DNA of 64,000 nucleotides, taken from the IMG/VR virus record IMGVR_UViG_3300009678_000003, one strand, 5' to 3'. Positions 1-64,000 of this stretch are shown here, piece after piece. The DNA is from an uncultured virus (IMG/VR IMGVR_UViG_3300009678_000003) (taxonomy: Duplodnaviria > Heunggongvirae > Uroviricota > Caudoviricetes). The notes under the pieces were generated by a model. The model was given only the letters and a program-made list of their open reading frames with translations. It did not search any database and was not told the origin of the DNA. How positions within the stretch are numbered: the first letter of the stretch is position 1; every line of letters begins with the position of its first letter. A program made the position numbers and the translations under genes.

Positions 1-263
1 TCAGATTCACAATAGGAGAGCAAGGCGCGTTTGATTTGACCCTCCAAGCCTTCGGACTTAGAGAAGAGCCATTCAAGCACAGCGCACGGTTCTCCTTCCT
101 TTGCCATCGTTCGAACCTGATGAGCGGTTCTGATTCTTTGGTCTTGCATGATGTAGTAGGAATCGACGAGATACCGGACTTCCTGCTTCGATAGAGTCTT
201 GGCGGCTTGCACCAAGTCCCGGCTCATCCTGATTTCAAGCTCTGCTGATTGTTGTTCGCTCAT
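1..263 (-). CDS. Tas/IS110-related (Nop-domain family) protein, N-terminal part; runs off window edge
   Basis: Manual translation MSEQQSAELEIRMSRDLVQAAKTLSKQEVRYLVDSYYIMQDQRIRTAHQVRTMAKEGEPCAVLEWLFSKSEGLEGQIKRALLSYCES; RBS AAGGAG upstream; helical region resembles the coiled coil preceding the Nop domain in IS110/Tas proteins; TIGR-like array directly upstream. Confidence 0.65.
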   Translation of the reverse strand, partial: MSEQQSAELEIRMSRDLVQAAKTLSKQEVRYLVDSYYIMQDQRIRTAHQVRTMAKEGEPCAVLEWLFSKSEGLEGQIKRALLSYCES

Positions 264-280
264 TTGGCTCCTTGTTTGAA

Positions 281-354
281 CGCTCCTGTATTTTGGTTCT
301 ATCTCGGTTTCTGGCTCGCTCTTTTTGAATGTTACTATCTGGCTTCATGGCTCA
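281..354 (-). ncRNA. TIGR-like array, two 36-nt units with two 9-nt spacers each
   Basis: Minus strand: AGCCA-TGAAGCCAG-ATAGTAACA-TTCAAAAAG-AGCG|AGCCA-GAAACCGAG-ATAGAACCA-AAATACAGG-AGCG; units 317-352 and 281-316. Confidence 0.7.
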
Positions 355-402
355 TGCTTCATTCCCCTCCCCTCCACCGCCGGAACAGCAATCCGCTGTC
401 AG

Positions 403-636
403 CTAATCGCCTAGAAGCTCGCGGGTGAGTTCGTCTAGAATAATTCCTTTCATTTGAAAGAATCCGCCTAAGCCGTTGTAGGTACTGTTCCCTTGACGCT
501 CCTTTGCCCTATTCTCCACCTCGGCCACGAATGCGCGAATGTAGTGATCAGCTTGGACGTGCCAAGCAGGACTTACCGGGAAGCCGCGCTTTTTGTGAAC
601 CTCCATAACCCACTTTTCACCTGCTTCAGTCATCAA
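403..636 (-). CDS. hypothetical protein
   Basis: ORF co-oriented with early arm, GGAGGG RBS upstream. Confidence 0.5.
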   Translation of the reverse strand: MMTEAGEKWVMEVHKKRGFPVSPAWHVQADHYIRAFVAEVENRAKERQGNSTYNGLGGFFQMKGIILDELTRELLGD

Positions 637-1867: not shown

Positions 1868-3040
1868 TCAAGCCTCTGCTGGCAGCGCTGAATCTCCTGA
1901 CGGGTCTGGGAGGTCATGGTATTGCATCTCTACCTGAACCTTGCTCATCCGCTTCACTGCCTGCTTGCTCAGGTACTCGAAATTGAGATCACAGCCCACG
2001 CCCCGGCGCTGCAGTCTGCTGGCAACGCGAATCACTGTGCCGCTTCCAACGAAGGGATCGAAAACAAGATCGCCGGGCCGGGATCCTGCCAAGATGCAAG
2101 GCTCAACCAATTTTTCTGGCATCGTGGCGAAGTGTGCGCCCTTCCAAGGTTGCGTCGAAATAGTCCAAACTGACCGTTTGTTCCTGCTCTCCGTAATAGC
2201 GCGGAAAGCATTCTGTCCGGTGTCTGCCATCGCTTCAGTCTTGCCGTTGAAGGAACCTTTCGGCGCGCTGACTCTTGGCTTGCCTGAAGACCTTCCAAGC
2301 TGATGCTCTCCCGTCTTACCCGTGTGGAATTGGCTTCCCTTGAAGCTACGCGGCTCGACACCGTGACGCTGTTCTGGTGGCCTGCCATCCATCTGCCAAG
2401 CTCCTTCGCTGGTGTAGGGACGCCTTGGGTCGTTCGTGACGCTCGGCTCTTGGATTGCGATGTGATCGAAATAATAGCGTTCAGATTTTGCCAGTAGAAA
2501 CAGGTACTCGTGGGATTTGCAGCATCTGTCTCTAACGCTCTCAGGCATCGGTCCCGGCTTCGACCAAATTATGTCCTGGCGCAAGTACCAGCCGTCGGCT
2601 TGTAGTGCAAAGGCGACGCGCCAAGGGATACCCACGAGGTCTTTAGCTTTTAGCCCGTGACTTTTCGGAGTTCCGTCACGATTGCGCTGGCCACGTTCAT
2701 CCACTATTCCATCAGCCCGACCCGACCCTGCCTGGTACGGACGCCCATAAGATTCGCCGCCGCCATTTCTCCCGTTGTACGTCCCACTGCCGCCTTTACC
2801 TGGATCACTGGCATAAGAATCGCCCAAATTAATCCATAACACGCCATCATCCTTCAGCACGCGCCGCACTTCTCGAAACACGGCTACCATGTTTGCAACG
2901 TACTCCTCGGGCGTCCGCTCTAACCCCATCTGGCCAGGAATGCCATAATCCCTCAATCCCCAATAAGGCGGCGACGTCACGACCGTTTGCACCGTGCCGC
3001 TCGCTATCGGAATGTGTCTCGCATCTGCCTGGCAGATCAT
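1868..3040 (-). CDS. N4-C/N6-A DNA methyltransferase (beta class)
   Basis: VTSPPY motif IV, HFATMP and DPFVGSGT motif I; TGATG coupling with upstream gene. Confidence 0.92.
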   Translation of the reverse strand: MICQADARHIPIASGTVQTVVTSPPYWGLRDYGIPGQMGLERTPEEYVANMVAVFREVRRVLKDDGVLWINLGDSYASDPGKGGSGTYNGRNGGGESYGRPYQAGSGRADGIVDERGQRNRDGTPKSHGLKAKDLVGIPWRVAFALQADGWYLRQDIIWSKPGPMPESVRDRCCKSHEYLFLLAKSERYYFDHIAIQEPSVTNDPRRPYTSEGAWQMDGRPPEQRHGVEPRSFKGSQFHTGKTGEHQLGRSSGKPRVSAPKGSFNGKTEAMADTGQNAFRAITESRNKRSVWTISTQPWKGAHFATMPEKLVEPCILAGSRPGDLVFDPFVGSGTVIRVASRLQRRGVGCDLNFEYLSKQAVKRMSKVQVEMQYHDLPDPSGDSALPAEA

Positions 3041-3378
3041 CACAAAACCTTCCAGCCTTTCAGAACCTTGATGCACTCATCCAGCGACCGCGCGACCTCA
3101 TACTTCACTCCGAGCCGCTGGCAGCTCGCCTGAAACGCCAACTGATTCGGATTCAGCATCCCTTTCTCCGTCTTCAGCTCAATCCAGCCGCTTCCGAGGT
3201 CCCATGTGAAAACAAAGTCTCCCGCTCCTGCAATCACGCCTTGCCGCTTCAGGTTCGAGGCTTCAATCAGGCTCCGGCTGCCGCCGTTCGGGACCGCGGT
3301 ATAGACGCAGCGGGGTTTGGCAGCGAGAAGGTATTGAAAGAACGCGGCGCTCAGTTGGGCTTCTTCGCGGTTACGCAT
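3040..3378 (-). CDS. VRR-NUC domain nuclease
   Basis: AVPNGGSR...LKRQGVIAGAGDF...WIELKTEKG..NPNQ. Confidence 0.85.
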   Translation of the reverse strand: MRNREEAQLSAAFFQYLLAAKPRCVYTAVPNGGSRSLIEASNLKRQGVIAGAGDFVFTWDLGSGWIELKTEKGMLNPNQLAFQASCQRLGVKYEVARSLDECIKVLKGWKVL

Positions 3379-3652
3379 GGCCATCAACCAGTGAGTCCGG
3401 CATCCCGCATCCTTGTCCAATCGGAATGGCTTTTGAGAACAGAGGCACCAACACTTCATCAGCGTTGAAGTTGGCCATCAGGTGCCTTGATGGGTGAGTA
3501 ACGAGTCCGCACTACGCCCGACCATCAGTCCATTCAAGAGCTGGACAGGGAGCGGATGCACCTGGGAAGCATTGCTCAGCAACCTCGCACAACTCAGCGG
3601 CACAGCATAGGCCGCAACCGTTACATGGTGAGCCGTACTTTGGCTTGGTCAT
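3371..3652 (-). pseudogene. Cys-rich protein interrupted by in-frame TAG at 3512-3514
   Basis: KPKYGSPCNGCGLCC...CPALEWTDGRA*CGLVTHP...GQGCG; frame stays open 46 codons past the TAG and ends overlapping the VRR-NUC start. Confidence 0.6.
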
Positions 3653-4992: not shown

Positions 4993-5568
4993 TCAACACT
5001 CTCCTAAAATTTGTCGTTTCAAAGCTGCAAGTTTGTCTTCTTCTGATTGGGTCTCTCCGTAGAGAGCAACGATCCAAGTGCGGTCACCCTTCCATTTTGG
5101 CGGAATCAAGGTGCCGTGTAGCGCCTGGCTGCTGCAGATCCTAAGTGGTCCGGCAATCTCCTGCACCTGCCCAGAAGATACCGGATCAGAACTACCACCG
5201 TTACACGGCCGCCCGTCCGCCGCCGATTTCCAATAGGCTATTTGGGCACCAGAAGCCACGGCTGCGCGGTAAACCGCTTGCTGGCTTTCGGGCCATCGGG
5301 AAACGTAAGAAGCAACAGCTTTCTTCCAGTAAGTTTCGTCCCCGTACCCGTACCCGTCTCCGGACCCGGACCCGTACCCGTACCCGTCCCCGTCCCCGGA
5401 CCCGGACCCGGACCCGTACCCGTACCCGTCCCCGTCCCCGGACCCGGACCCGTCCCCGGACCCGTACCCGTACCCGTACCCGTCCCCGGACCCGTACCCG
5501 TACCCGTACCCGTCCCCGGACCCGGACCCGTCCCCGGACCCGGACAGCGCGTTCAACTTACTTGCCAT
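4993..5568 (-). CDS. protein with GSGDGYG low-complexity N-terminus
   Basis: ~70 aa G-x repeat followed by globular domain. Confidence 0.75.
   Translation of the reverse strand: MASKLNALSGSGDGSGSGDGYGYGYGSGDGYGYGYGSGDGSGSGDGDGYGYGSGSGSGDGDGYGYGSGSGDGYGYGDETYWKKAVASYVSRWPESQQAVYRAAVASGAQIAYWKSAADGRPCNGGSSDPVSSGQVQEIAGPLRICSSQALHGTLIPPKWKGDRTWIVALYGETQSEEDKLAALKRQILGEC
5335..5545. repeat. 6-bp period tandem repeat (ccgtac/ccggac/ccgtcc) encoding G-Y/G-S/G-D
   Basis: Directly visible. Confidence 0.95.
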
Positions 5569-5767
5569 TCAACACACTCGCTTTCTGCTGACTGAAAATC
5601 TCTTGATTCGCCATCCTGAAAAAGCTCCGCGCGATCCGGCCCAGGGTCTCCAGTTCGAACTGGCATTCCATCGACATCTGTGGTGCCAGCGGTTTCAGCT
5701 CGTGCTGCAACGTATTGAGCACGATTAGTAAGAATTGTTCGTGAGCGCGAAAGTGTTCTAGTGTCAC
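5558..5767 (-). CDS. hypothetical protein
   Basis: ORF in operon. Confidence 0.5.
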   Translation of the reverse strand: MTLEHFRAHEQFLLIVLNTLQHELKPLAPQMSMECQFELETLGRIARSFFRMANQEIFSQQKASVLNGK

Positions 5768-5894
5768 TTACCTTATCCTTTGATGCCGGGAGTCCATCCC
5801 CGAACCCCCGGCGCCTTCTCTTTTTTCCCTTGACTCGCTTTTCCTTTCATTCGATTTGTCCTGCAATTCTGCGGAGTAGGCCCCGCAGAAACTT

Positions 5895-6092: not shown

Positions 6093-6520
6093 TTCAAAAC
6101 CTCTAAGGCGTCCTGATAGCTACACTGCAACTCAGAGCGGAAGATACGCTCCCAGGCTGCGTCTGCGTCTGCCTCCCGATAACCTATCATCCGGTCCCGA
6201 TGCTCGCGGATCACGCGCCTGACCTCGGCGGCCGATGGGAGATTGCGCTTACACTCTTGAGATCCGCAATTGTCTGGCTCGTCTTCCCACCGCTTCTGCG
6301 CGAGCCAGGTGGACGGGTGCGGAATGTATTGGCCGTTGGCCTTCGTCCAGTTGTGAGATTTCTTCTGCCGTTCTAATTCGGCCAAAATGGTTTTTGACAA
6401 TTCGACTTTGACCTTCAATCTTTTCCATAACTCAGCCGCCCGTCCCCTTCCTACCTTCCGGGGGTAGGCTTTCCAAAATTCTTCGAACCCGCTCGGGGTC
6501 GCGCCCGTTTTCTCTTCCAT
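6089..6520 (-). CDS. phage replication-initiator-like protein (C-terminal-type domain)
   Basis: FEEFWKAYPRKVG...YIPHPSTWLAQKRWEDE motif. Confidence 0.75.
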   Translation of the reverse strand: MEEKTGATPSGFEEFWKAYPRKVGRGRAAELWKRLKVKVELSKTILAELERQKKSHNWTKANGQYIPHPSTWLAQKRWEDEPDNCGSQECKRNLPSAAEVRRVIREHRDRMIGYREADADAAWERIFRSELQCSYQDALEVLK

Positions 6521-6743
6521 TTCTCTCTCTTCTTTCTGACTACCTATCGATGCGAGGGAAGGGAGGAAGGTAAGGGCAAAGGACTCCCATCCCCGCTTGC
6601 GCGTGCGGTGGAAGTCCGGCCCTCTGACTACAAAACGCATCGACGGTCGGTCGGTCGGTCGTTTCGGGCTCTACAGACTTTTCAGGTAGTTCGCTGTAGA
6701 TTGGCTGTGAACTTTCGGTGTACTATCCCACCTGCAGCGGCGT

Positions 6744-7370
6744 TCAGCCTATCGGACTCGCCTGCTCCTTGTGCTGCATCCCCCCAGTAGGAGCGTTTAG
6801 CTTCCCGTTGCGCTGGTGGTCGGCCTCCGCAACGGGGGTTATTCCTGACGCAAGCAACTCCTCCGCAGTTGTAACGATTTGATAGAACTTCGCCCGAAAT
6901 GGGCGCTGGTCGTGGTCTTCCATGTGACACACTGTGCAGAGGATTTGCAGGTCTCTTAACTTTTCTCTGCCCAGGCGAACGTATGTCTTGTGGTGACACT
7001 CAAGGTTGAATTCGGATCGGCAACGAATATTCTCACATCGCTTGCCGACGCTCTTCAGCTTCGCTTCGCGCTTCTTTCTCCACTCCGCAGATTTAATGTA
7101 AAGCGCGTAGACTGGTTTCCCGTATTGCATCCACCAGTATTCCTTGTGTCGTTTTTTCTTGCGCTTTGGACTAGAGGAAGGTGGCATAAACTTAAGGACT
7201 TCAAAGCCCTTCCTATAGCAATCAAGGCAAAGGACTCCATGAGGAACCTTGATAAAAGCGTCTCTACCGCACTGGCAGAACTTGTTCATAGGCTGCGTTA
7301 CTTTCGCGTTACCTGTTCGCAACTGCCAACAACTGTTTGCAACTGCTAAGCGGATGCACTGCAGATGCAC
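6744..7370 (-). CDS. HNH endonuclease (likely start at MNKFC)
   Basis: YIKSAEWRKKR...CENIRC...CHHKTY.RLGRE...LCTVCH. Confidence 0.8.
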   Translation of the reverse strand: MHLQCIRLAVANSCWQLRTGNAKVTQPMNKFCQCGRDAFIKVPHGVLCLDCYRKGFEVLKFMPPSSSPKRKKKRHKEYWWMQYGKPVYALYIKSAEWRKKREAKLKSVGKRCENIRCRSEFNLECHHKTYVRLGREKLRDLQILCTVCHMEDHDQRPFRAKFYQIVTTAEELLASGITPVAEADHQRNGKLNAPTGGMQHKEQASPIG

Positions 7371-12746: not shown

Positions 12747-13144
12747 TTAGCTCCCGGTGGTAGTAGTCAGCGAACTTGATGCCGAGCTGAAAACATTGTT
12801 GATCGCGTTGCCCAGTGCTGGTAGGACAGCAAGTGCTGCGAGAGCGATGAACGTGAGCAGGAGGCTGTATTCACCTGTTTGTTACTGCTCTTAGGCAGGG
12901 TTGGTCATTTCTGCCAACCTCTCATGGTTGTTGTTCCCATGAGAGCGGACTATCGCATCGCCCACTAGGGGCGTCTCTTCGTTTAGTCTCTCAGGCTGCT
13001 TTCGCTTGCCCCTTGTTCCCATTTCAGGGTTCAAGTCAATTAGAAGAGATTTTTCCGTTCCGATATCGCTATCGGTGGTCGCCGATTTCAGTTGACGAGA
13101 TCTTGCCCAGACTCCTCTTGTAGGAACTTCTTGATAAACTTCAT
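12747..13144 (-). CDS. flp: Flp family (type IVc/Tad) pilin, spliced: exon1 13095-13144, exon2 12747-12873
   Basis: Joined product MKFIKKFLQEESGQDLVEYSLLLTFIALAALAVLPALGNAINNVFSSASSSLTTTTGS (58 aa) has G|xxxxEY Flp motif; RBS AAAGGAGA. Confidence 0.85.
12874..13094 (-). ncRNA. group I intron (221 nt)
   Basis: Core CCTGAGAGACTAAACG ... GATGCGATAGTCCG (P7), P3 TCTCTTC/GAAGAGA, P1 UCGU|C with GGCGA giving U.G at the splice site, terminal G; removal restores pilin frame. Confidence 0.9.
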
Positions 13145-13688
13145 GTGTCTCCTTTAGATGTTTCCAAGTTTTTCTTTGAACGATGAATCTAATGGTTCCC
13201 TCAACTACGTTGTGTTTCTGTGCCAGTCGTCTAAGGCTGACTCCTTCGCTGTACTCCTTCCGGATCTCGACCACAATTTCGTCAGTGAGCTTTGTTAGGT
13301 AGTGATCCTCTCCTTCGCATGCGGTGCCGTGCTTGAGCCGGTCTTGCTGATTGCTGGTCCGCGTATCCCAGCGAAGATTGTCCAAGCGGTTGTCTGTGCC
13401 GTTCCCGTTGTTGTGGCAGCCTTCCATGCCTTCTGGGCAGGGACCTCGGAATGCCGTCAGTATCAGCACATGGACGTTCTCTGAGTGACGGTCGCCATTT
13501 GGAGCTATGAGAATCACGCGCCGATGTCTGGATTTGTAGTTCGTTGTGCGTACTCCGAACTTCATCAGGCGGAACTCGTCTGCCAGGCGGTGGCTGCCTC
13601 GCACGTAGAGGCTCCAGATATTCCCATCTGGAGTCACCCGATACGCCGGGAAGCCATCGATTGTTTTGCCGTCGAGAATGGGATCCAT
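12891..13688 (-). CDS. NUMOD4-HNH homing endonuclease
   Basis: GFPAYRVTPDGNIWS, VHVLILTAFRGPCP..MEGCHNNG...DNRLDNLRW. Confidence 0.9.
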   Translation of the reverse strand: MDPILDGKTIDGFPAYRVTPDGNIWSLYVRGSHRLADEFRLMKFGVRTTNYKSRHRRVILIAPNGDRHSENVHVLILTAFRGPCPEGMEGCHNNGNGTDNRLDNLRWDTRTSNQQDRLKHGTACEGEDHYLTKLTDEIVVEIRKEYSEGVSLRRLAQKHNVVEGTIRFIVQRKTWKHLKETHEVYQEVPTRGVWARSRQLKSATTDSDIGTEKSLLIDLNPEMGTRGKRKQPERLNEETPLVGDAIVRSHGNNNHERLAEMTNPA

Positions 13689-28778: not shown

Positions 28779-29027
28779 ATGAAACGAAGAGACTTTCTAC
28801 AATCACTAACGGCCGCTCCAGTTGCAGGTATGACGGCGCTCTCTATCTGGAAGCCTGCTCCAAAGATTGTGGGGATCATGGCTGATTATTCTTACGCGCG
28901 CCATAACGTCTCTGGGAACATCTTCGAAGCCTTCAAACCCGGGGAGATGATTTGGATTAAAGGCGGAACCTACTCTCCTGTAACCGCTAAAGACTTGCTC
29001 AAGGAATGGCCGCCCTCCTCAGCCTAG
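28779..29027 (+). CDS. small protein with Tat-like signal
   Basis: MKRRDFLQSLTAAPVAG. Confidence 0.6.
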   Translation: MKRRDFLQSLTAAPVAGMTALSIWKPAPKIVGIMADYSYARHNVSGNIFEAFKPGEMIWIKGGTYSPVTAKDLLKEWPPSSA

Positions 29028-29707
29028 TGACTGGAACTCTGAATCGTCCGGCCAGTCTTCAGCGGCTTGTCAAATCGATTAAAGCTCATACTCCGGTGCC
29101 GTGGGAGTTGGTCATTTCCGACGCTTCGGATGAGCCAATCGAGAATGTTTTCCAGTCAGCCAACATCACAATCCTTCCCGAGCGGCCACGGCTTGGGTTC
29201 GTGAAGGGCTACAATCGAGCGTTCCGCTATGCAACCGGGACCTGGGTTGTCTTCCTGAATGACGACGCTGAGGTGCAACCTGGCTACGCGGAAGCGGCCG
29301 TCGGCTTCATGGAAGCGCATCCCGATGTAGGCTTGGGAGCGCTCTATTACGCGGAGGGCAAGTTGCCATACAGGACGTGGAGCTGCTATGGAATGCTCTA
29401 TGCAAATTTCGGCATCATCAGCCGCGAGCTAGGGAATCAAGTCGGCTGGTTTGACGAAGAACTGACGATGTACGGCTCTGACAATTCGCTGGCTTTTCGC
29501 GTTCTCTTGGCCGGGAAGGGCGTTGCAAGTATCCCGGGCGCGCGCGTCTGGCATCACGTTCAGCTTGATCAGTGGAAAAAGGAGAACCAGCGGCACCGCG
29601 TCGCTGACGGAAGCAAGTTGCATCAGAAGTATTTCCCAAGGGTAGATCAAATGCGAACCACATATCGAGCTACCCGGCATTTGTCTGGACCGGAGATGCT
29701 CAGATGA
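29006..29707 (+). CDS. GT2 family glycosyltransferase
   Basis: LVISDASD, KGYNRA, VFLNDDA, GWFDEELTMYGSDNSL. Confidence 0.88.
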   Translation: MAALLSLVTGTLNRPASLQRLVKSIKAHTPVPWELVISDASDEPIENVFQSANITILPERPRLGFVKGYNRAFRYATGTWVVFLNDDAEVQPGYAEAAVGFMEAHPDVGLGALYYAEGKLPYRTWSCYGMLYANFGIISRELGNQVGWFDEELTMYGSDNSLAFRVLLAGKGVASIPGARVWHHVQLDQWKKENQRHRVADGSKLHQKYFPRVDQMRTTYRATRHLSGPEMLR

Positions 29708-29840
29708 AAAGAGATGTCTCTATAGAGTGCGACTGTTCGAGCTACCGCGACAACATCGGTAAGGTGAACGGGCCGATCATCAACGAAGGATTGCGCTATG
29801 GAACCCAAGGGTACACAGGCGAGACTTTCAGGTTCTGCCC

Positions 29841-31079
29841 TTGGTGTGGGAAACCGCTCGTGGAAAAGTCCGTGCATCACACCGAGGTTGCCAACTGAAA
29901 CGCTTGCATGTGGGTTCGGGCTCCGTTTACTTGCGAGATTGGATCAACGTCGATGTCAAGGGGCCGCGCACCTTCCTAGCCTCTAATCGCCCTGACTTGG
30001 TAGAGAAGTTCGGCACGACAGACGATCAGTATTACGCACGTCACCAAGACAAAACGATTGACACAGTTCGCCAGGGGCCGCTGGATCAAGACTACGTTTG
30101 CGACGCTTACGGCAGTTTTGGCAATCTGCCCTTGCCCTATTGGGAAATAGACGAAGTCCTCGCCAGACACGCATTCGAGCACCTCTCGTTCAACGAGGCC
30201 AGGTCCGCTCTGGACATGCTGGACAGCGTGATGAAGGTCGGAGCCGTCCTGCGGCTCGACGTGCCTGACCACGAGGAAACGGTACGGCTTTTGCAGGAAA
30301 CTCGTGATCCGTTTTATGCTCGCCATTTGCTCGGGCCGAGGCGTGACCAATACGGATATCACATGCGCTCTTACACGAGGCAGGGCTTGATTGACCTCGT
30401 GGAAGACCACGGCTTCTCCTACATCTGCGAGGAGCCAAACATACATTTCTACCCGGCCTTCTGCCTTCGCTTTCACAAGCTCGATCTCATGGCGGCTCGG
30501 GATTATGTCAAGTTGCCGTATTCAATCGAGGACCATTGGAAGGTTCTGGAGATTGGGCCTGGTGCAAACCCGTTCTCACGCGCGGACGTAGTTGTCGATT
30601 GCAACCCAGCGCATCTTGAGCCTTTGACGGCGAAGCGAACGGTCTGCGCTGACCTTGAGCAGGGCCTCCCGGAGCTTGGAGATAAAGAGTTTGACTATCT
30701 GTTTTGCGCGCACGTGTTAGAGCATGTGCAGGACCCTATCGCTTGCGCTCGAACTATGAGCAGAATTGCCAAGAGAGGGACGGCAGTTTTCCCCAGCGTG
30801 ATGAAGGAGTCGCTCTTCAATTTCGAGGAAGCGGCGCATCGCTGGTTGATCCTTCCTCATCCAAATGGGGGTCCTCCGGTATTCGTGCGGCGCAACGGAG
30901 ATATTGAGCGTTTGAAAGACGCAGAGGTGATGGGCTCCATGTGCCGGCTGTTCCGTACCGGGCCGAATCGCATGGGTGAAGAGTCAAGGCATTTGCGTCG
31001 CTGGTTTCGGGAGAAAGAGCCGTTGCTTGATGTGGTTTGTCACTGGCAGGACAAGCTTGAGTTGATGGTGATTCAGTGA
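29841..31079 (+). CDS. tandem SAM-dependent methyltransferase-domain protein
   Basis: LHVGSG...HAFEHL and LEIGPG...HVLEHV. Confidence 0.85.
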   Translation: MVWETARGKVRASHRGCQLKRLHVGSGSVYLRDWINVDVKGPRTFLASNRPDLVEKFGTTDDQYYARHQDKTIDTVRQGPLDQDYVCDAYGSFGNLPLPYWEIDEVLARHAFEHLSFNEARSALDMLDSVMKVGAVLRLDVPDHEETVRLLQETRDPFYARHLLGPRRDQYGYHMRSYTRQGLIDLVEDHGFSYICEEPNIHFYPAFCLRFHKLDLMAARDYVKLPYSIEDHWKVLEIGPGANPFSRADVVVDCNPAHLEPLTAKRTVCADLEQGLPELGDKEFDYLFCAHVLEHVQDPIACARTMSRIAKRGTAVFPSVMKESLFNFEEAAHRWLILPHPNGGPPVFVRRNGDIERLKDAEVMGSMCRLFRTGPNRMGEESRHLRRWFREKEPLLDVVCHWQDKLELMVIQ

Positions 31080-31236
31080 TTGCTATGCAGAGGTTCGGAG
31101 GTAGGTTGATGGATCAGATCAACCCTATTGCCGTCGTTTGGGAATGCGGCAAGTGCGGAGACATCAAGACTTCGACGATTGGTGATGACAAAGCGGCTCT
31201 TCAAATTATGGGGAAGACCTGCGAGAAATGTAAACA

Positions 31237-32406
31237 GTGGATTTACAAACTCTCTGGGCATATGGACGCAGAGCAACACGCTGCTTTCCTCGCAGTCCAA
31301 AAGAAAAAAGAGTGATCCCGCGCGCCGCGATTTTAGACACTTATTACCCTGACTTTCTAAGCACTTGGCAGCTCAATCCAGAGGCTGGCTACGAAGCCGA
31401 GCTGCAGCGGCTCCTGGCTTTCTCATTCGGAACTGCGGACTACTACTCCCGCAACCTCCGCGCGCTGGGCTGGGAAACGCTGGATATCATCGGGAATTAC
31501 GCGCCGCTGCAAGAACAATGGGCTAGAGAGAATGATTGCAGAGCCGCATATCCGTGGAGAATTGTGCTGGAGCAAATCAGGGCCTTCAAGCCTGCCGTGG
31601 TTTTCCTCCAGGATTTGTCATTTCTAAACCATGAGTCTCTAGCGATTCTGAAAAGGGAAGGCTATTTGATGACTGGTCAGTGCTCGTGCCCCATGCCCCT
31701 TGCGGACAAGGTGCGACAATGCGACGTGCTGTTTACCAGTTTCCCTCACTACCTCAAGCGGTTTCAGGATCTAGGAGTCAAAGCGGTCTACCTGCCGCTG
31801 GCCTTCGAGCCGGACGTACTGACGCGGCTTGGGCCGGAAGAACCAGAACGTGATATTGATTGTCTCTTCGTCGGTGGCATCGGCTTCCACTGGACAGATT
31901 CCTTGCCATTGCTCGAAACGCTGGCGAGAGAGATTCCGTCAATGCAGTTCTGGGGCTACGGCTATGAGAACCTTCCGGCTGGGAGTCCTATACGTAAGAA
32001 GTATCTAGGGCCCGCCTGGGGACTAGACTATTACAGGCTTCTGCATCGCGCCAAGATCGTTGTGAACCGCCACGGGGCTGTAGCTGGTCCGTATGCGAAT
32101 AACCTCAGACTTTTTGAAGTCACGGGCTGTGGAGCCTTGCTATTCACCGAATGGCGGAAGAATCTTGACGATTTCTTCACCGCGGATGAGTGCATTGCGT
32201 ACCAGAATCCAGAGGAAGCTGCTCGCCTCGTTCGTCATTATTTAGATCATTGGACGCTCGGCAAATCTATTGCTGAGGCCGGCCAGCAGAAGACACTGAC
32301 GCGGCACACCTACCAGCAGCGGATGCCATTGGTTTCTGAGACACTTCAAAAGAATGCCTGCAATCTCGACACATTACCGCCAACTGAAGCCAGAGGAAGT
32401 CGCTGA
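31237..32406 (+). CDS. CgeB-like GT-B glycosyltransferase (start likely 31312)
   Basis: LPLAFEP, AKIVVNRH, NLRLFEVTGCGA, HTYQQR. Confidence 0.85.
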   Translation: MDLQTLWAYGRRATRCFPRSPKEKRVIPRAAILDTYYPDFLSTWQLNPEAGYEAELQRLLAFSFGTADYYSRNLRALGWETLDIIGNYAPLQEQWARENDCRAAYPWRIVLEQIRAFKPAVVFLQDLSFLNHESLAILKREGYLMTGQCSCPMPLADKVRQCDVLFTSFPHYLKRFQDLGVKAVYLPLAFEPDVLTRLGPEEPERDIDCLFVGGIGFHWTDSLPLLETLAREIPSMQFWGYGYENLPAGSPIRKKYLGPAWGLDYYRLLHRAKIVVNRHGAVAGPYANNLRLFEVTGCGALLFTEWRKNLDDFFTADECIAYQNPEEAARLVRHYLDHWTLGKSIAEAGQQKTLTRHTYQQRMPLVSETLQKNACNLDTLPPTEARGSR

Positions 32407-33091
32407 AGTGGCAGCACTGTACGCCGACGCTTGGATGGATGAGAGGATCCCACAGTTGCAGTACGAGGCGTGTGTTCAGCCGGAGCTGGAAGCGTGGAGA
32501 CAAGGGAAGCCGGTTGCGCCGTATGAAGCGCTCGTTCGCTGTTTTTCCCATATTGGCGTGCAGCTCCCTGGGGCTCTGTTTGGTGTCAGGGTTCTTGAGG
32601 TTGGGGCTTCCTGTGGGTACAACTTGGAAGTGATGAGGTTGTCAGGATTCGATCAGATACATTATCGCGCTCTGGACTTCTCTCCAGCCTACCAGCGTCT
32701 TGCTAAGCGGCTCTGGCCTGACATGCCGTTCGATGTCGGAGACGCGCGTGCGCTGCCGTATGAAGCCGGGGCCTTCGATATCGTGCTCAGCGGCGGGGTG
32801 CTTCTCCACGTCCGCGAATACGAGCAGGTGATTGTTGAAACCTCCAGGGTTGCGAGTCAGTTTGCAATCTTTCACAGGACGCCAGTTTGGAACAAGGAGA
32901 CGGCCTGGTTCCTGAAAGAGGGCTACGGCATACCGATGATTGAGGCTCGATTCAACGAAGCGGAATTGCGCGGGCTCTTCGACGAATACGGCCTGCCCGT
33001 GATAGCGGCGATCGACGTTGCTCCGGCTCAAGACGGCGTGATTCACCGGAGTTACCTTTGCAAGAAAGGGCTGTTTCATCATTCGGTATGA
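32354..33091 (+). CDS. class I SAM methyltransferase
   Basis: VLEVGASCG, LDFS, GDARALPY. Confidence 0.88.
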   Translation: MPAISTHYRQLKPEEVAEVAALYADAWMDERIPQLQYEACVQPELEAWRQGKPVAPYEALVRCFSHIGVQLPGALFGVRVLEVGASCGYNLEVMRLSGFDQIHYRALDFSPAYQRLAKRLWPDMPFDVGDARALPYEAGAFDIVLSGGVLLHVREYEQVIVETSRVASQFAIFHRTPVWNKETAWFLKEGYGIPMIEARFNEAELRGLFDEYGLPVIAAIDVAPAQDGVIHRSYLCKKGLFHHSV

Positions 33092-33305
33092 AGAAACTTT
33101 ATCAATTACTTTGCATCGGTCAGGCATGCGGACGGTGGTTTCATAGCAGGCACCAAAGGACGCTTGTCTATCGTAATTGCACAGTGAGTTGGTGTGCTGT
33201 CTGTCAGGATTGGATAGAGAGGAATGCGCGCATGCTGGGCTACACCAAAACAGACTTCGACCTGAATCACGAAGCCGTAGCAACGCATGATGACAGGATC
33301 AAGCC

Positions 33306-34169
33306 TTGGTTGTTCGGGCTATGAGCGTTTTAGTTAGACGTTATTGCAGCTTGTGGGATTCGCGCTTTCTTCCGCAAGGCTTGGCCCTCTATGACTCTTT
33401 GAATCGCCATTCTAGTCGTCCATTCAGGCTCCACGTTCTGGCGATGGATGATGAATGCGCGGCGGCGCTCAATAGTTTGGCATTGGACCACATGGACGTG
33501 TTTTGGCTCAGCGCCGTAGAGCGATTCATGTTCAACGAGCCAATCAAAGACTCAAGAACGTGGCAAGAATACTGTTGGACGTGCGCCTCAAATTTTGCTC
33601 ATTGGCTTTTGCCTCATAGTGAAATTACTTATCTGGATTCTGATTGCTGGTTCGCATCCGATCCAGAAGCCGTCTTCGCAGAGATCGGCGAGCGCTCAAT
33701 CGGAATTGTCCCACATAGATTTCCTCCAGAGCGGAAGCACATGGAAGTTAACGGAAAGTTCAACGTGTCTTGGGTGACTTTCCGAGGGGCGGTCGGCTTC
33801 AAGTGCCTAGAGAAGTGGGCGCGACAGTGCCGAGAGAAATGCTCTGCTAAAGAAGGATGCGGCGATCAGAAATACTTGGACGCCTGGCCAACAGACTATC
33901 CCGGCGAGGTCTGCGAGATTCAGAACATCGGCGTGGGGACCGCGCCTTGGAACGTCTCTCAATATAGGGTTGTTGATGGCCCGTGGGGAGTGAGGCTCAA
34001 TGGACAACCGCTGATATTTTTTCATTACCACGAGTACCAGCACAATCAACGCCTGACGAACTACAAGCTGCGCAAGGAAGACCGCGACCTGATTTACGCG
34101 CCCTACATTGAGGCGGTGGAAGCGGCGAAGGCGCGAGTTGAATCTTTGATGATGGAGGCAATTCAATGA
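33306..34169 (+). CDS. GT-A fold glycosyltransferase
   Basis: FLPQGLALYDSL, TYLDSD, DQKYLDAWP, APWN, FFHYH. Confidence 0.8.
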   Translation: MVVRAMSVLVRRYCSLWDSRFLPQGLALYDSLNRHSSRPFRLHVLAMDDECAAALNSLALDHMDVFWLSAVERFMFNEPIKDSRTWQEYCWTCASNFAHWLLPHSEITYLDSDCWFASDPEAVFAEIGERSIGIVPHRFPPERKHMEVNGKFNVSWVTFRGAVGFKCLEKWARQCREKCSAKEGCGDQKYLDAWPTDYPGEVCEIQNIGVGTAPWNVSQYRVVDGPWGVRLNGQPLIFFHYHEYQHNQRLTNYKLRKEDRDLIYAPYIEAVEAAKARVESLMMEAIQ

Positions 34170-34567
34170 ACACTTATTTGAATTCAAGAGCGCGAATCAA
34201 CGGAACGAAGATCGGCGATCAGTTCTGTGTCTACACCAACGATGAGCGCACCAGCTTTGCCGTTGAGTCGGATCAAGAGCATCCTCGGGCCTTTCCCATC
34301 AGGGTGTATTCGGATAACAATAATCGTCGGTTTCTAAAAGAGAATGCCGAAATTATCGATATCCTGAAAATAACCGGCATCCTGAAAGGCACGCATGAGG
34401 AGCCCGCCTCCCGAGACGTTTCCATCCGTAAGGTGCAACCGCCAGCCAGCCGAGCGCCAATGTCAATGGCAAACGAAGATCCAAAACCTCAACCTCCACC
34501 AAAGCCTGACTCTACGCCAGCAAAACGAGACGAGCCGCAACCTAAACCTGTGCCGAAAAAGAAGTAG
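34166..34567 (+). CDS. hypothetical protein, Pro/Lys-rich tail
   Basis: ATGA coupling, GGAGG RBS. Confidence 0.6.
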   Translation: MNTYLNSRARINGTKIGDQFCVYTNDERTSFAVESDQEHPRAFPIRVYSDNNNRRFLKENAEIIDILKITGILKGTHEEPASRDVSIRKVQPPASRAPMSMANEDPKPQPPPKPDSTPAKRDEPQPKPVPKKK

Positions 34568-34761
34568 GTAGACGTGAAGACCATCATTCGGATTGACTCT
34601 GCTGAAGTTATTCTTGAGTTTGAATTTCCCTACGTGCAGATGGCCATCTGCGTGGGTGATCAGATGCAATCCTGCCTCACTCTGGATATCAAAGAGGCAG
34701 AAATGCTCCGCGCTAGCTTGCAAGCAATGGTTGATGTTCTTCAGACGCAGGACATCCTGGA

Positions 34762-35445
34762 GTGACAACTGTCTCAGTTGTCGTTGCCACCTACGGCCCT
34801 GACCGAGCCTTCTGGGATGGCCTAGCACGTCGTGCCATCGGCTCCGTCATCAACCAGACGCAGAGGCCCACGGAATTTCACCGCGTGCATGTTGACGAGC
34901 CGAACGCGCTCCATATTGCTAGGAATCGCGGGGCGGCGATGTCTGAGACAGAATTCCTCGTGTTCTGCGACGCAGATGACACACTTCACCCCGAATACGT
35001 CGAAGCCATGCTGGCAGGCGAAGGCGATGTCCGTATCCCAAACCGCGAGCGCTTCTACTGGGACGGTTCGCACAAGCCGGTTGACCAAATCAAGCCGGGT
35101 GGCGACCTGCTCCGGCACAGCCATATCCTAATCGGGGCCATGGTCCGGCACGATCTATTCAACAAGGTGGGCGGATTCGAAGACTTGCCGATCTGGGAAG
35201 ACTGGCATTTCTGGTGCAAGTGCTGGGTGAATGGCGCGACGATGATCCAATGTCCGAAGGCGATCTACCAAGTCCACATCCGGCAGGGGAGCCGCAATCA
35301 ACAGATGGGAAACATCGGTCAGGCAGCACGTATTCGGCTGGAGTTTGAGCCGTTGGCGAGGGCCAAGGGGTTGATGGCAGAGCAGAGAAACGCTGGCGAG
35401 CAGAAACGGCGGTTTGGGATTAGTCGGGAGGGAGCCACGACATGA
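34762..35445 (+). CDS. GT2 family glycosyltransferase
   Basis: VSVVVATY, ARNRG, FCDADD, GGF..WEDWHFW. Confidence 0.9.
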   Translation: MTTVSVVVATYGPDRAFWDGLARRAIGSVINQTQRPTEFHRVHVDEPNALHIARNRGAAMSETEFLVFCDADDTLHPEYVEAMLAGEGDVRIPNRERFYWDGSHKPVDQIKPGGDLLRHSHILIGAMVRHDLFNKVGGFEDLPIWEDWHFWCKCWVNGATMIQCPKAIYQVHIRQGSRNQQMGNIGQAARIRLEFEPLARAKGLMAEQRNAGEQKRRFGISREGATT

Positions 35446-63788: not shown

Positions 63789-64000
63789 TAGCTCGCTCCT
63801 TGCGCTTCTACAGTGGATTCAATCTTCTCATCAACAAGGACTTGGCAAACCCTGACACACTCATCACAAATGTAAGCTGACTTACCAGCCACAAGTTTAC
63901 GAACCTCATTTCTCCACTTTGAACAAAACGAGCAGCACATCTCGGCTGGAAGGCTTCGCTCGAAACCTTCTAGTACCTTGAACGGGATAGTGACATCGCC
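63788..64000 (-). CDS. ClpX C4-type Zn-finger protein, 5'-truncated by window
   Basis: Manual translation ...[27 protein letters not shown]... Confidence 0.75.

Follow-up and report, generated by a model that had tools for sequence, protein, structure and literature searches.

The window analyzed here is the whole 64,000-nucleotide stretch of an uncultured Caudoviricetes virus (IMG/VR IMGVR_UViG_3300009678_000003). At its left edge lies the 5′ part of a tasA gene on the minus strand and, in the leader of that gene, a block at 357..281 (minus strand) that reads as two units, 36 nt each, from a dual-repeat TIGR array. The remaining window is that of a tailed phage, with terminase, portal, Mu F-like, tail, and lysis genes. 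The features at the edge, from the start of the array toward the gene, are as follows.

348..357, minus strand: first edge repeat, with a degenerate 5′ half, agreeing with the consensus at 7 of 10 positions with the last 6 bases identical; it starts the 19.9-bit unit
340..347, minus strand: spacer A of unit 1, 8 nt, variable, in the low-information columns 11–18 of the unit matrix
330..339, minus strand: loop repeat of unit 1, matching GATAGAACCA at 8 of 10 positions and of the same GAYAG...CA type as in the off-window array
322..329, minus strand: spacer B of unit 1, 8 nt, delimited by the unit matrix
312..321, minus strand: full edge repeat GAGCGAGCCA, closing unit 1 and opening unit 2; with 13 copies it is the most frequent 10-mer in the off-window array, and it starts the 38.2-bit unit
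304..311, minus strand: spacer A of unit 2, 8 nt, delimited by the unit matrix
294..303, minus strand: loop repeat of unit 2, GATAGAACCA; the metagenome contig L020 has loop repeats of exactly this sequence
286..293, minus strand: spacer B of unit 2, 8 nt, delimited by the unit matrix
281..285, minus strand: last edge repeat, truncated at its 3′ side to GAGCG, the same ending as in the upstream arrays of relatives and in the off-window array
317..352, minus strand: predicted mature tigRNA 1, 36 nt, from the published mid-edge-repeat cleavage (Faure 2025, Science, PMC12045711) applied to the sequence
281..316, minus strand: predicted mature tigRNA 2, 36 nt, placed by the same cleavage rule
264..280, minus strand: 17-nt leader joining the array to the start codon; AGGAG at 272..268 resembles a Shine-Dalgarno sequence
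1..263, minus strand: 5′ part of tasA, codons 1–87, open at the left edge of the window (ORF 3..263, ATG at 263..261); the full product is P0001

A sequence-only reading of this stretch had described two 36-nt units of alternating constant and variable blocks ending 17 nt before an open reading frame, and the present analysis confirms this arrangement, with the blocks where that reading had put them. Its division of each unit into 9-nt constant and 9-nt variable blocks did not stand: the 36-nt unit is correct, but column information from 16 off-window units fits 10-nt repeats and 8-nt spacers better. A second correction to the earlier description of the blocks is that the first edge repeat is conserved only in part.

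The rest of the locus was recovered from three metagenome contigs (L019, L020, and L021) in which window positions 400..1 are present without a mismatch and the sequence goes on beyond the left edge. Identity between L020 and the window is 99.98% over 5,409 nt and 100% over 3,919 nt, with window position 1 corresponding to L020 5409 and window position 64000 to L020 8053. Since both flanks of the window match this one contig, the source is circular or circularly permuted, about 66.6 kb long, and was cut at 64 kb. The missing stretch of 2,643 nt (L020 5410..8052, present also in L019) holds tasA codons 88 to 275 and the main array, which is located directly 3′ of tasA. It opens with a loop repeat in which the tasA stop codon is embedded, 17 edge-started units follow, with the edge repeat GAGCGAGCCA in 13 exact copies and loop repeats of the GATAGAACCA type (GAYAGnnnCA), and it ends with a truncated GAGCG. 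The suggestion that more units lay beyond the window was thus borne out, with 17 of them following the stop codon in both L020 and L019, and the phage of about 66.6 kb carries 19 guides, 2 in the leader and 17 in the trailer. A GATAG-type loop repeat is found in the leader units and in the trailer array, and relatives of about 50% protein identity use GAGAG. On the sequences compared, the GATAG type is specific to the locus's own lineage (the relative L022 included) and ties the leader and trailer arrays together. The window block at 357..281 (minus strand) is best explained as a two-unit segment, upstream of a phage tasA, of a dual-repeat TIGR array lying on both sides of that gene.

The nearest virus record (G001) lacks this end of the genome, an exact search with a 50-nt pattern from the window start gave no match among viral contigs, and the names of the three contigs are absent from four supplementary files of Faure 2025, Table S1 being covered in part. 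Several other features of the phage deserve mention in their own right. The early region near tasA encodes an N6/N4 DNA methylase, a VRR-NUC nuclease, and an HNH_3 endonuclease (1871..3076, 3043..3459, and 12894..13688, all minus strand). A cluster of glycosyltransferase and methyltransferase genes, an unusual cargo, is positioned inside the structural region (29006..35442, plus strand) and possibly serves modification of the host surface or the virion. Just past the main array, a stretch at about L020 6680..6730 resembles, by eye, the 3′ portion of an opposite-strand tRNA and might be the remnant of an attachment site; ARAGORN found no tRNA in L020, and Rfam gave no match in L020 4800..8100.

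To score the two window units against an independent standard, a weight matrix was built from 16 of the 17 off-window units of L020, one 37-nt unit being left out, and run over both strands of the 64-kb window with 20 shuffled windows as the control. The top two sites were at 321 (minus strand, 38.2 bits) and 357 (minus strand, 19.9 bits), exactly 36 nt apart and in register. The third-best position in the window reached 14.3 bits and the maxima of the 20 shuffled windows ranged from 5.5 to 15.8 bits; the training units scored 26.7 to 37.8 bits against their own matrix. Unit 2 is a perfect unit of the locus's array and unit 1 is a weaker one. Across the whole window, a lag-36 identity scan passed two regions only, 252..379 and 5297..5584, the latter a coding hexamer repeat. 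The ORF concerned (4996..5568, minus strand), the sole other place to pass the scan, has an N-terminal half of Gly-Tyr/Gly-Ser/Gly-Asp hexamer repeats (period 6 nt, 34 copies) and a TrAA12-like Pfam match.

Related loci place this arrangement in a wider context. Searches of viral and metagenome contigs yielded 67 loci; duplicates were removed by comparing identity over the gene and 100 nt of flank at either end, and with L001 (gene cut at the locus end) and the copies of the locus itself (L019 to L021) left out, 43 distinct relatives remained. An array was called when at least two edge repeats, with at most one mismatch to a 9-nt core, were spaced by one or two units. By this definition, edge-repeat chains occurred in 37 of the 43 relatives, all on the strand of the gene (opposite-strand chains, 0 of 43): 22 were upstream only, 7 downstream only, and 8 on both sides, with no chain in the remaining six (L018, L023, L051, L064, L065, and L066). 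Where at least 150 nt of flank was available, an upstream array was present at 27 of 36 loci and a downstream array at 14 of 34. The upstream arrays, found alone or together with a downstream one in 30 relatives, reach the tasA start codon and end in a truncated GAGCG. L022, which is the closest relative with DNA (65% tblastn identity), has the edge and loop repeats of the present locus both upstream and downstream of its gene, GATAG loop included. Apparent upstream arrays from the lag-36 scan in L003 and L016 were coding repeats on inspection, and the motif-chain count was used instead.

An alternative explanation for the leader block could be that its two units are the decayed remnant of a longer upstream array, TIGR by descent with no working guides, while the 17-unit downstream array is the functional one. 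The relatives are consistent with such decay, as their upstream arrays are far longer, with 15 to 17 edge repeats in five loci (L012, L015, L044, L049, and L050) and 21 in L061, and with at least 7 upstream units in L022. Unit 1 likewise points this way, its 19.9 bits lying below the whole range of the training units, its first edge repeat degenerate, and its loop repeat matching at 8 of 10 positions. Furthermore, neither unit in the window is bounded by two full edge repeats, which is the stated condition for processing of minimised arrays (Faure 2025). However, unit 2 scores above every training unit, and the partial repeats at the two ends are exactly the halves that a mid-repeat cut leaves on mature 36-nt RNAs. 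Truncation is also the published norm, in that natural TIGR arrays typically start and end with truncated edge repeats, and minimised arrays of one to three units were in fact processed in that study (PMC12045711). We consider the decayed-remnant explanation doubtful, though of the rival explanations it is the one to be taken most seriously. It is rather probable that the two leader units would yield working guides.

The gene itself can be judged from its complete product. P0001 has 275 aa, is 100% identical over the 87 residues encoded in the window, and contains a GIGP motif. Searched by sequence against the PDB (phmmer), it matched TasH (21kl_A, E 7.4e-10) and TasR (9mty_A, E 1.3e-9). An AlphaFold2 model from a 20-sequence alignment was all-helical (pLDDT 85.8, pTM 0.82), and in a Foldseek comparison of this model with the PDB the ten top-ranked chains were all TasH or TasR (E 5e-8 to 4e-7), aligned over 233 to 263 alignment columns of the 275-aa model, with IS621 next in the ranking (E 1.8e-3). 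The GIGP motif, together with TasH and TasR as the best matches by both sequence and fold, upholds the earlier identification of the open reading frame as a Tas gene. That reading had also named the outcome that would count against it, a full protein without a Nop domain and homologues without arrays. The opposite was found, with matches to TasH and TasR and with arrays in 37 of 43 relatives.

The N-terminus was likewise described correctly from the window as lacking a nuclease (RuvC) domain. Between the preceding in-frame stop and the ATG at 263 there is no other start codon, the N-terminus of P0001 lines up with those of 19 relatives, and the protein begins with the coiled-coil, its model aligning with TasH and TasR outside their nuclease domains. 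Pfam, alignment, and model showed neither an HNH nor a RuvC nuclease domain in P0001, and Pfam likewise gave no PF01548, the N-terminal DEDD/RuvC-like catalytic domain of IS110-family transposases. Because there is no N-terminal nuclease domain, P0001 is TasA and not TasH, so that of the label "TasA/TasH-like" given from the window the first half is retained and the second is not. TasA is the published name for the solo-Nop form (PMC12045711). Toward the C-terminus, a P-P-x-P-Y ... G-H-x-H motif is conserved, with H262 invariant in all 20 sequences and the tyrosine of "PY" present in most of them (F or W in a few). A conserved Tyr/His processing dyad has been described on a C-terminal loop (Xu 2026, preprint 10.64898/2026.09.09.750476).

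The 87-aa fragment alone gave only sub-threshold matches with Pfam and PHROGs. For full-length P0001, Pfam returned Transposase_20 alone at 20.9 bits, just under the cut-off of 21.3, which the homologue from L002 passes with 22.1 bits; with PHROGs, P0001 matched phrog_4285 ("transposase, integration and excision") over its whole length (E 1.7e-43). These results could be read as an IS110-family transposase remnant, with the repeats being a bridge-RNA region or a transposon end. Such a reading would accommodate the family name in PHROGs, the single Pfam match (Transposase_20 is the IS116/IS110/IS902 C-terminal domain), and the presence of the IS621 and ISCro4 recombinases among the weaker fold matches. 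It is nevertheless very improbable. The likeness to the IS110-family bridge-RNA recombinases (IS621, PDB 8wt6/8wt9) is that of an RNA-binding, Nop-like C-terminal domain, whereas the locus has no RuvC/DEDD domain, single bridge RNA, or mobile-element ends, and has a multi-unit guide array instead. No earlier start is possible that would add the missing N-terminal domain, and most of the 275 aa are aligned to Tas chains. By fold, IS621 is matched at E 1.8e-3 as against about 1e-7 for TasH and TasR; by sequence, the L002 homologue matches IS621 at 0.06 and TasR at 7e-12. Rather than a single structured RNA, the flanks in the relatives with chains are 36-nt arrays with variable spacers. The "transposase" label of phrog_4285 is probably misleading for nuclease-free proteins with guide arrays.

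That the 36-nt pattern is a chance resemblance in an intergenic region would be in keeping with there being two units only, with the failure of Tandem Repeats Finder to report a 36-nt array in the window, and with the weak short families that were all a general repeat search of the window returned, but this reading is refuted because a matrix trained off the window ranks the two units first and second, and it is further opposed by the identity of the repeats with those of the main array and by the same placement in relatives, so that it merits next to no credence.

Taken as a TIGR-TasA locus, the region can be compared with published systems, a family first reported in 2025 as RNA-guided binders of DNA. 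TIGR arrays consist of two alternating repeats of 8–12 nt with spacers of about 9 nt, and are found upstream and/or downstream of tas genes (Faure 2025). The closest parallel is the dual-repeat TIGR-TasA type (FpTIGR of Flavonifractor plautii in Faure 2025 and MbTasA in Xu 2026, the FpTasA and MbTasA proteins being likened by description), with which the locus shares a solo Nop-domain protein with a coiled-coil N-terminus, truncated terminal edge repeats, an array beside the gene on the same strand, and carriage by a phage. It differs in its 8-nt spacers, 9 nt being more usual, and in its split array, with 2 units placed ahead of the gene in the 5′ leader and 17 past the stop codon, the stop codon itself lying inside a loop repeat. 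Flanking arrays as such have already been described, in a collection of 6,685 arrays that may precede the gene, follow it, or flank it (Xu 2026). The best solved relative is SpTIGR-TasH of Salicola phage CGphi29 (PDB 21kl, 9w03, 9w04; PMC13421893), with E 7.4e-10 by sequence and E 5.4e-8 and TM 0.64 by fold. It too is a phage-borne dual-repeat array with 8-nt spacers, 16 variable nt having been reported for SpTIGR (Faure 2025) and an 8-nt spacer A in a preprint (10.64898/2026.08.11.744272). TasH, however, has an N-terminal HNH nuclease and cuts DNA, and P0001 is without such a domain. TaTasR (PDB 9mty) is similar in its Nop domain and coiled-coil (E 1.3e-9 by sequence, E 1e-7 by fold) but carries an N-terminal RuvC that is absent from P0001.

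There is also a likeness to TasA-TasParB operons, in which 10-nt repeats flank the spacers and arrays occur on either side of tasA. One relative, L002, has the order tasA, array, and a ParB-like gene (6490..7296, plus strand; phrog_12047 at 1.8e-13 and phrog_4715 at 2.8e-13, with no Pfam match at E 0.01), which fits the published tasA-tasParB arrangement. Beside the present tasA no ParB-like gene was found. A ParB Pfam domain was found in 0 of 83 ORFs (79 from the window and 4 from L020), although the sensitivity of Pfam is limited here, as it also missed the ParB-like protein of L002. That protein had no tblastn match in the window, in L020, or in any other locus fetched.

No promoter-like site was found directly before the two-unit array; the nearest lies at 565..538, with 9 of 12 matches, inside the upstream ORF, and promoter-like sites in the scan were no commoner than in shuffles. 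A simple scan found no terminator-like site after the main array on its strand (past L020 6610), and the tail of the main array folds no better than shuffles (z +1.19). The locus thus has no recognisable terminator, as against the Rho-independent terminator after the array that is described as typical, and not universal, in Faure 2025.

Searches for targets covered the collected loci and gave no convincing one; 16 variable nt are too short for a database-wide target search. Against the 64-kb window, the 18 spacer pairs of the locus gave one site with at most one mismatch (four arrangements, gaps of 0 to 12), which is chance level; against L020 they gave one such site, inside the array itself. 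When 388 spacer pairs from 55 loci were compared all-against-all with 306 kb, one perfect site was found, with about 1.4 expected by our own estimate and also one in the control pairing. The perfect match is between the L012 guide at 5782..5817 and L004 4820..4839 (with copies in L005, L028–L032, and L060), 8+8 nt with a 4-nt gap, and the site is positioned about 60 nt upstream of the TIGR array of that relative. The match is not significant, and its location is suggestive.

Patterns detected at this locus make it very probably a genuine TIGR-TasA system, with the window block as part of its array. Its mode of action may be outlined from published work on other Tas proteins, from which we infer that the array is transcribed and processed and that TasA dimerises, binds DNA, and represses its target. 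The leader units, tasA, and the 17-unit trailer share one strand and would probably be carried on one transcript. TasA, a coiled-coil and Nop-domain protein with no nuclease, would bind the edge and loop repeats as a dimer. Processing in the middle of the edge repeat is reported to give 36-nt tigRNAs (PMC12045711), and here such cuts would release 36-nt tigRNAs from the precursor with two 8-nt spacers each, two of these tigRNAs coming from the window. In the published systems spacers A and B pair with opposite DNA strands (PMC12045711), and the TasA-tigRNA complex would be expected to bind double-stranded DNA in the same manner. With no nuclease, the complex may block transcription or other traffic on its target with no cutting; one TasA has been reported to be a reversible RNA-guided transcriptional repressor (Xu 2026).

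It is conceivable, though we think it decidedly unlikely, that the split layout is itself functional, the cut in the last edge repeat 17 nt before the tasA start being such that processing of the leader guides by TasA would also make the 5′ end of the tasA mRNA. This would have two implications. First is that synthesis of TasA would be tied to guide maturation as a feedback loop. Secondly, the two leader guides would differ from the 17 trailing ones in dose or timing. As arrays adjoin the start codon in many relatives of the clade, the making of mRNA ends could then be general for upstream TIGR arrays.

Every anatomical feature of the locus has already been described, except the absence of a recognisable terminator, and the locus itself leaves knowledge of the family unchanged. 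It does show that a TIGR array is recognisable from raw sequence with two units and 87 codons, and it adds a complete example, from a tailed phage, of a TasA that lacks a nuclease and whose gene has guides on either side. A phage of about 66.6 kb with 19 guides, together with dozens of relatives sharing its repeats, is usable material for a hunt for natural targets.
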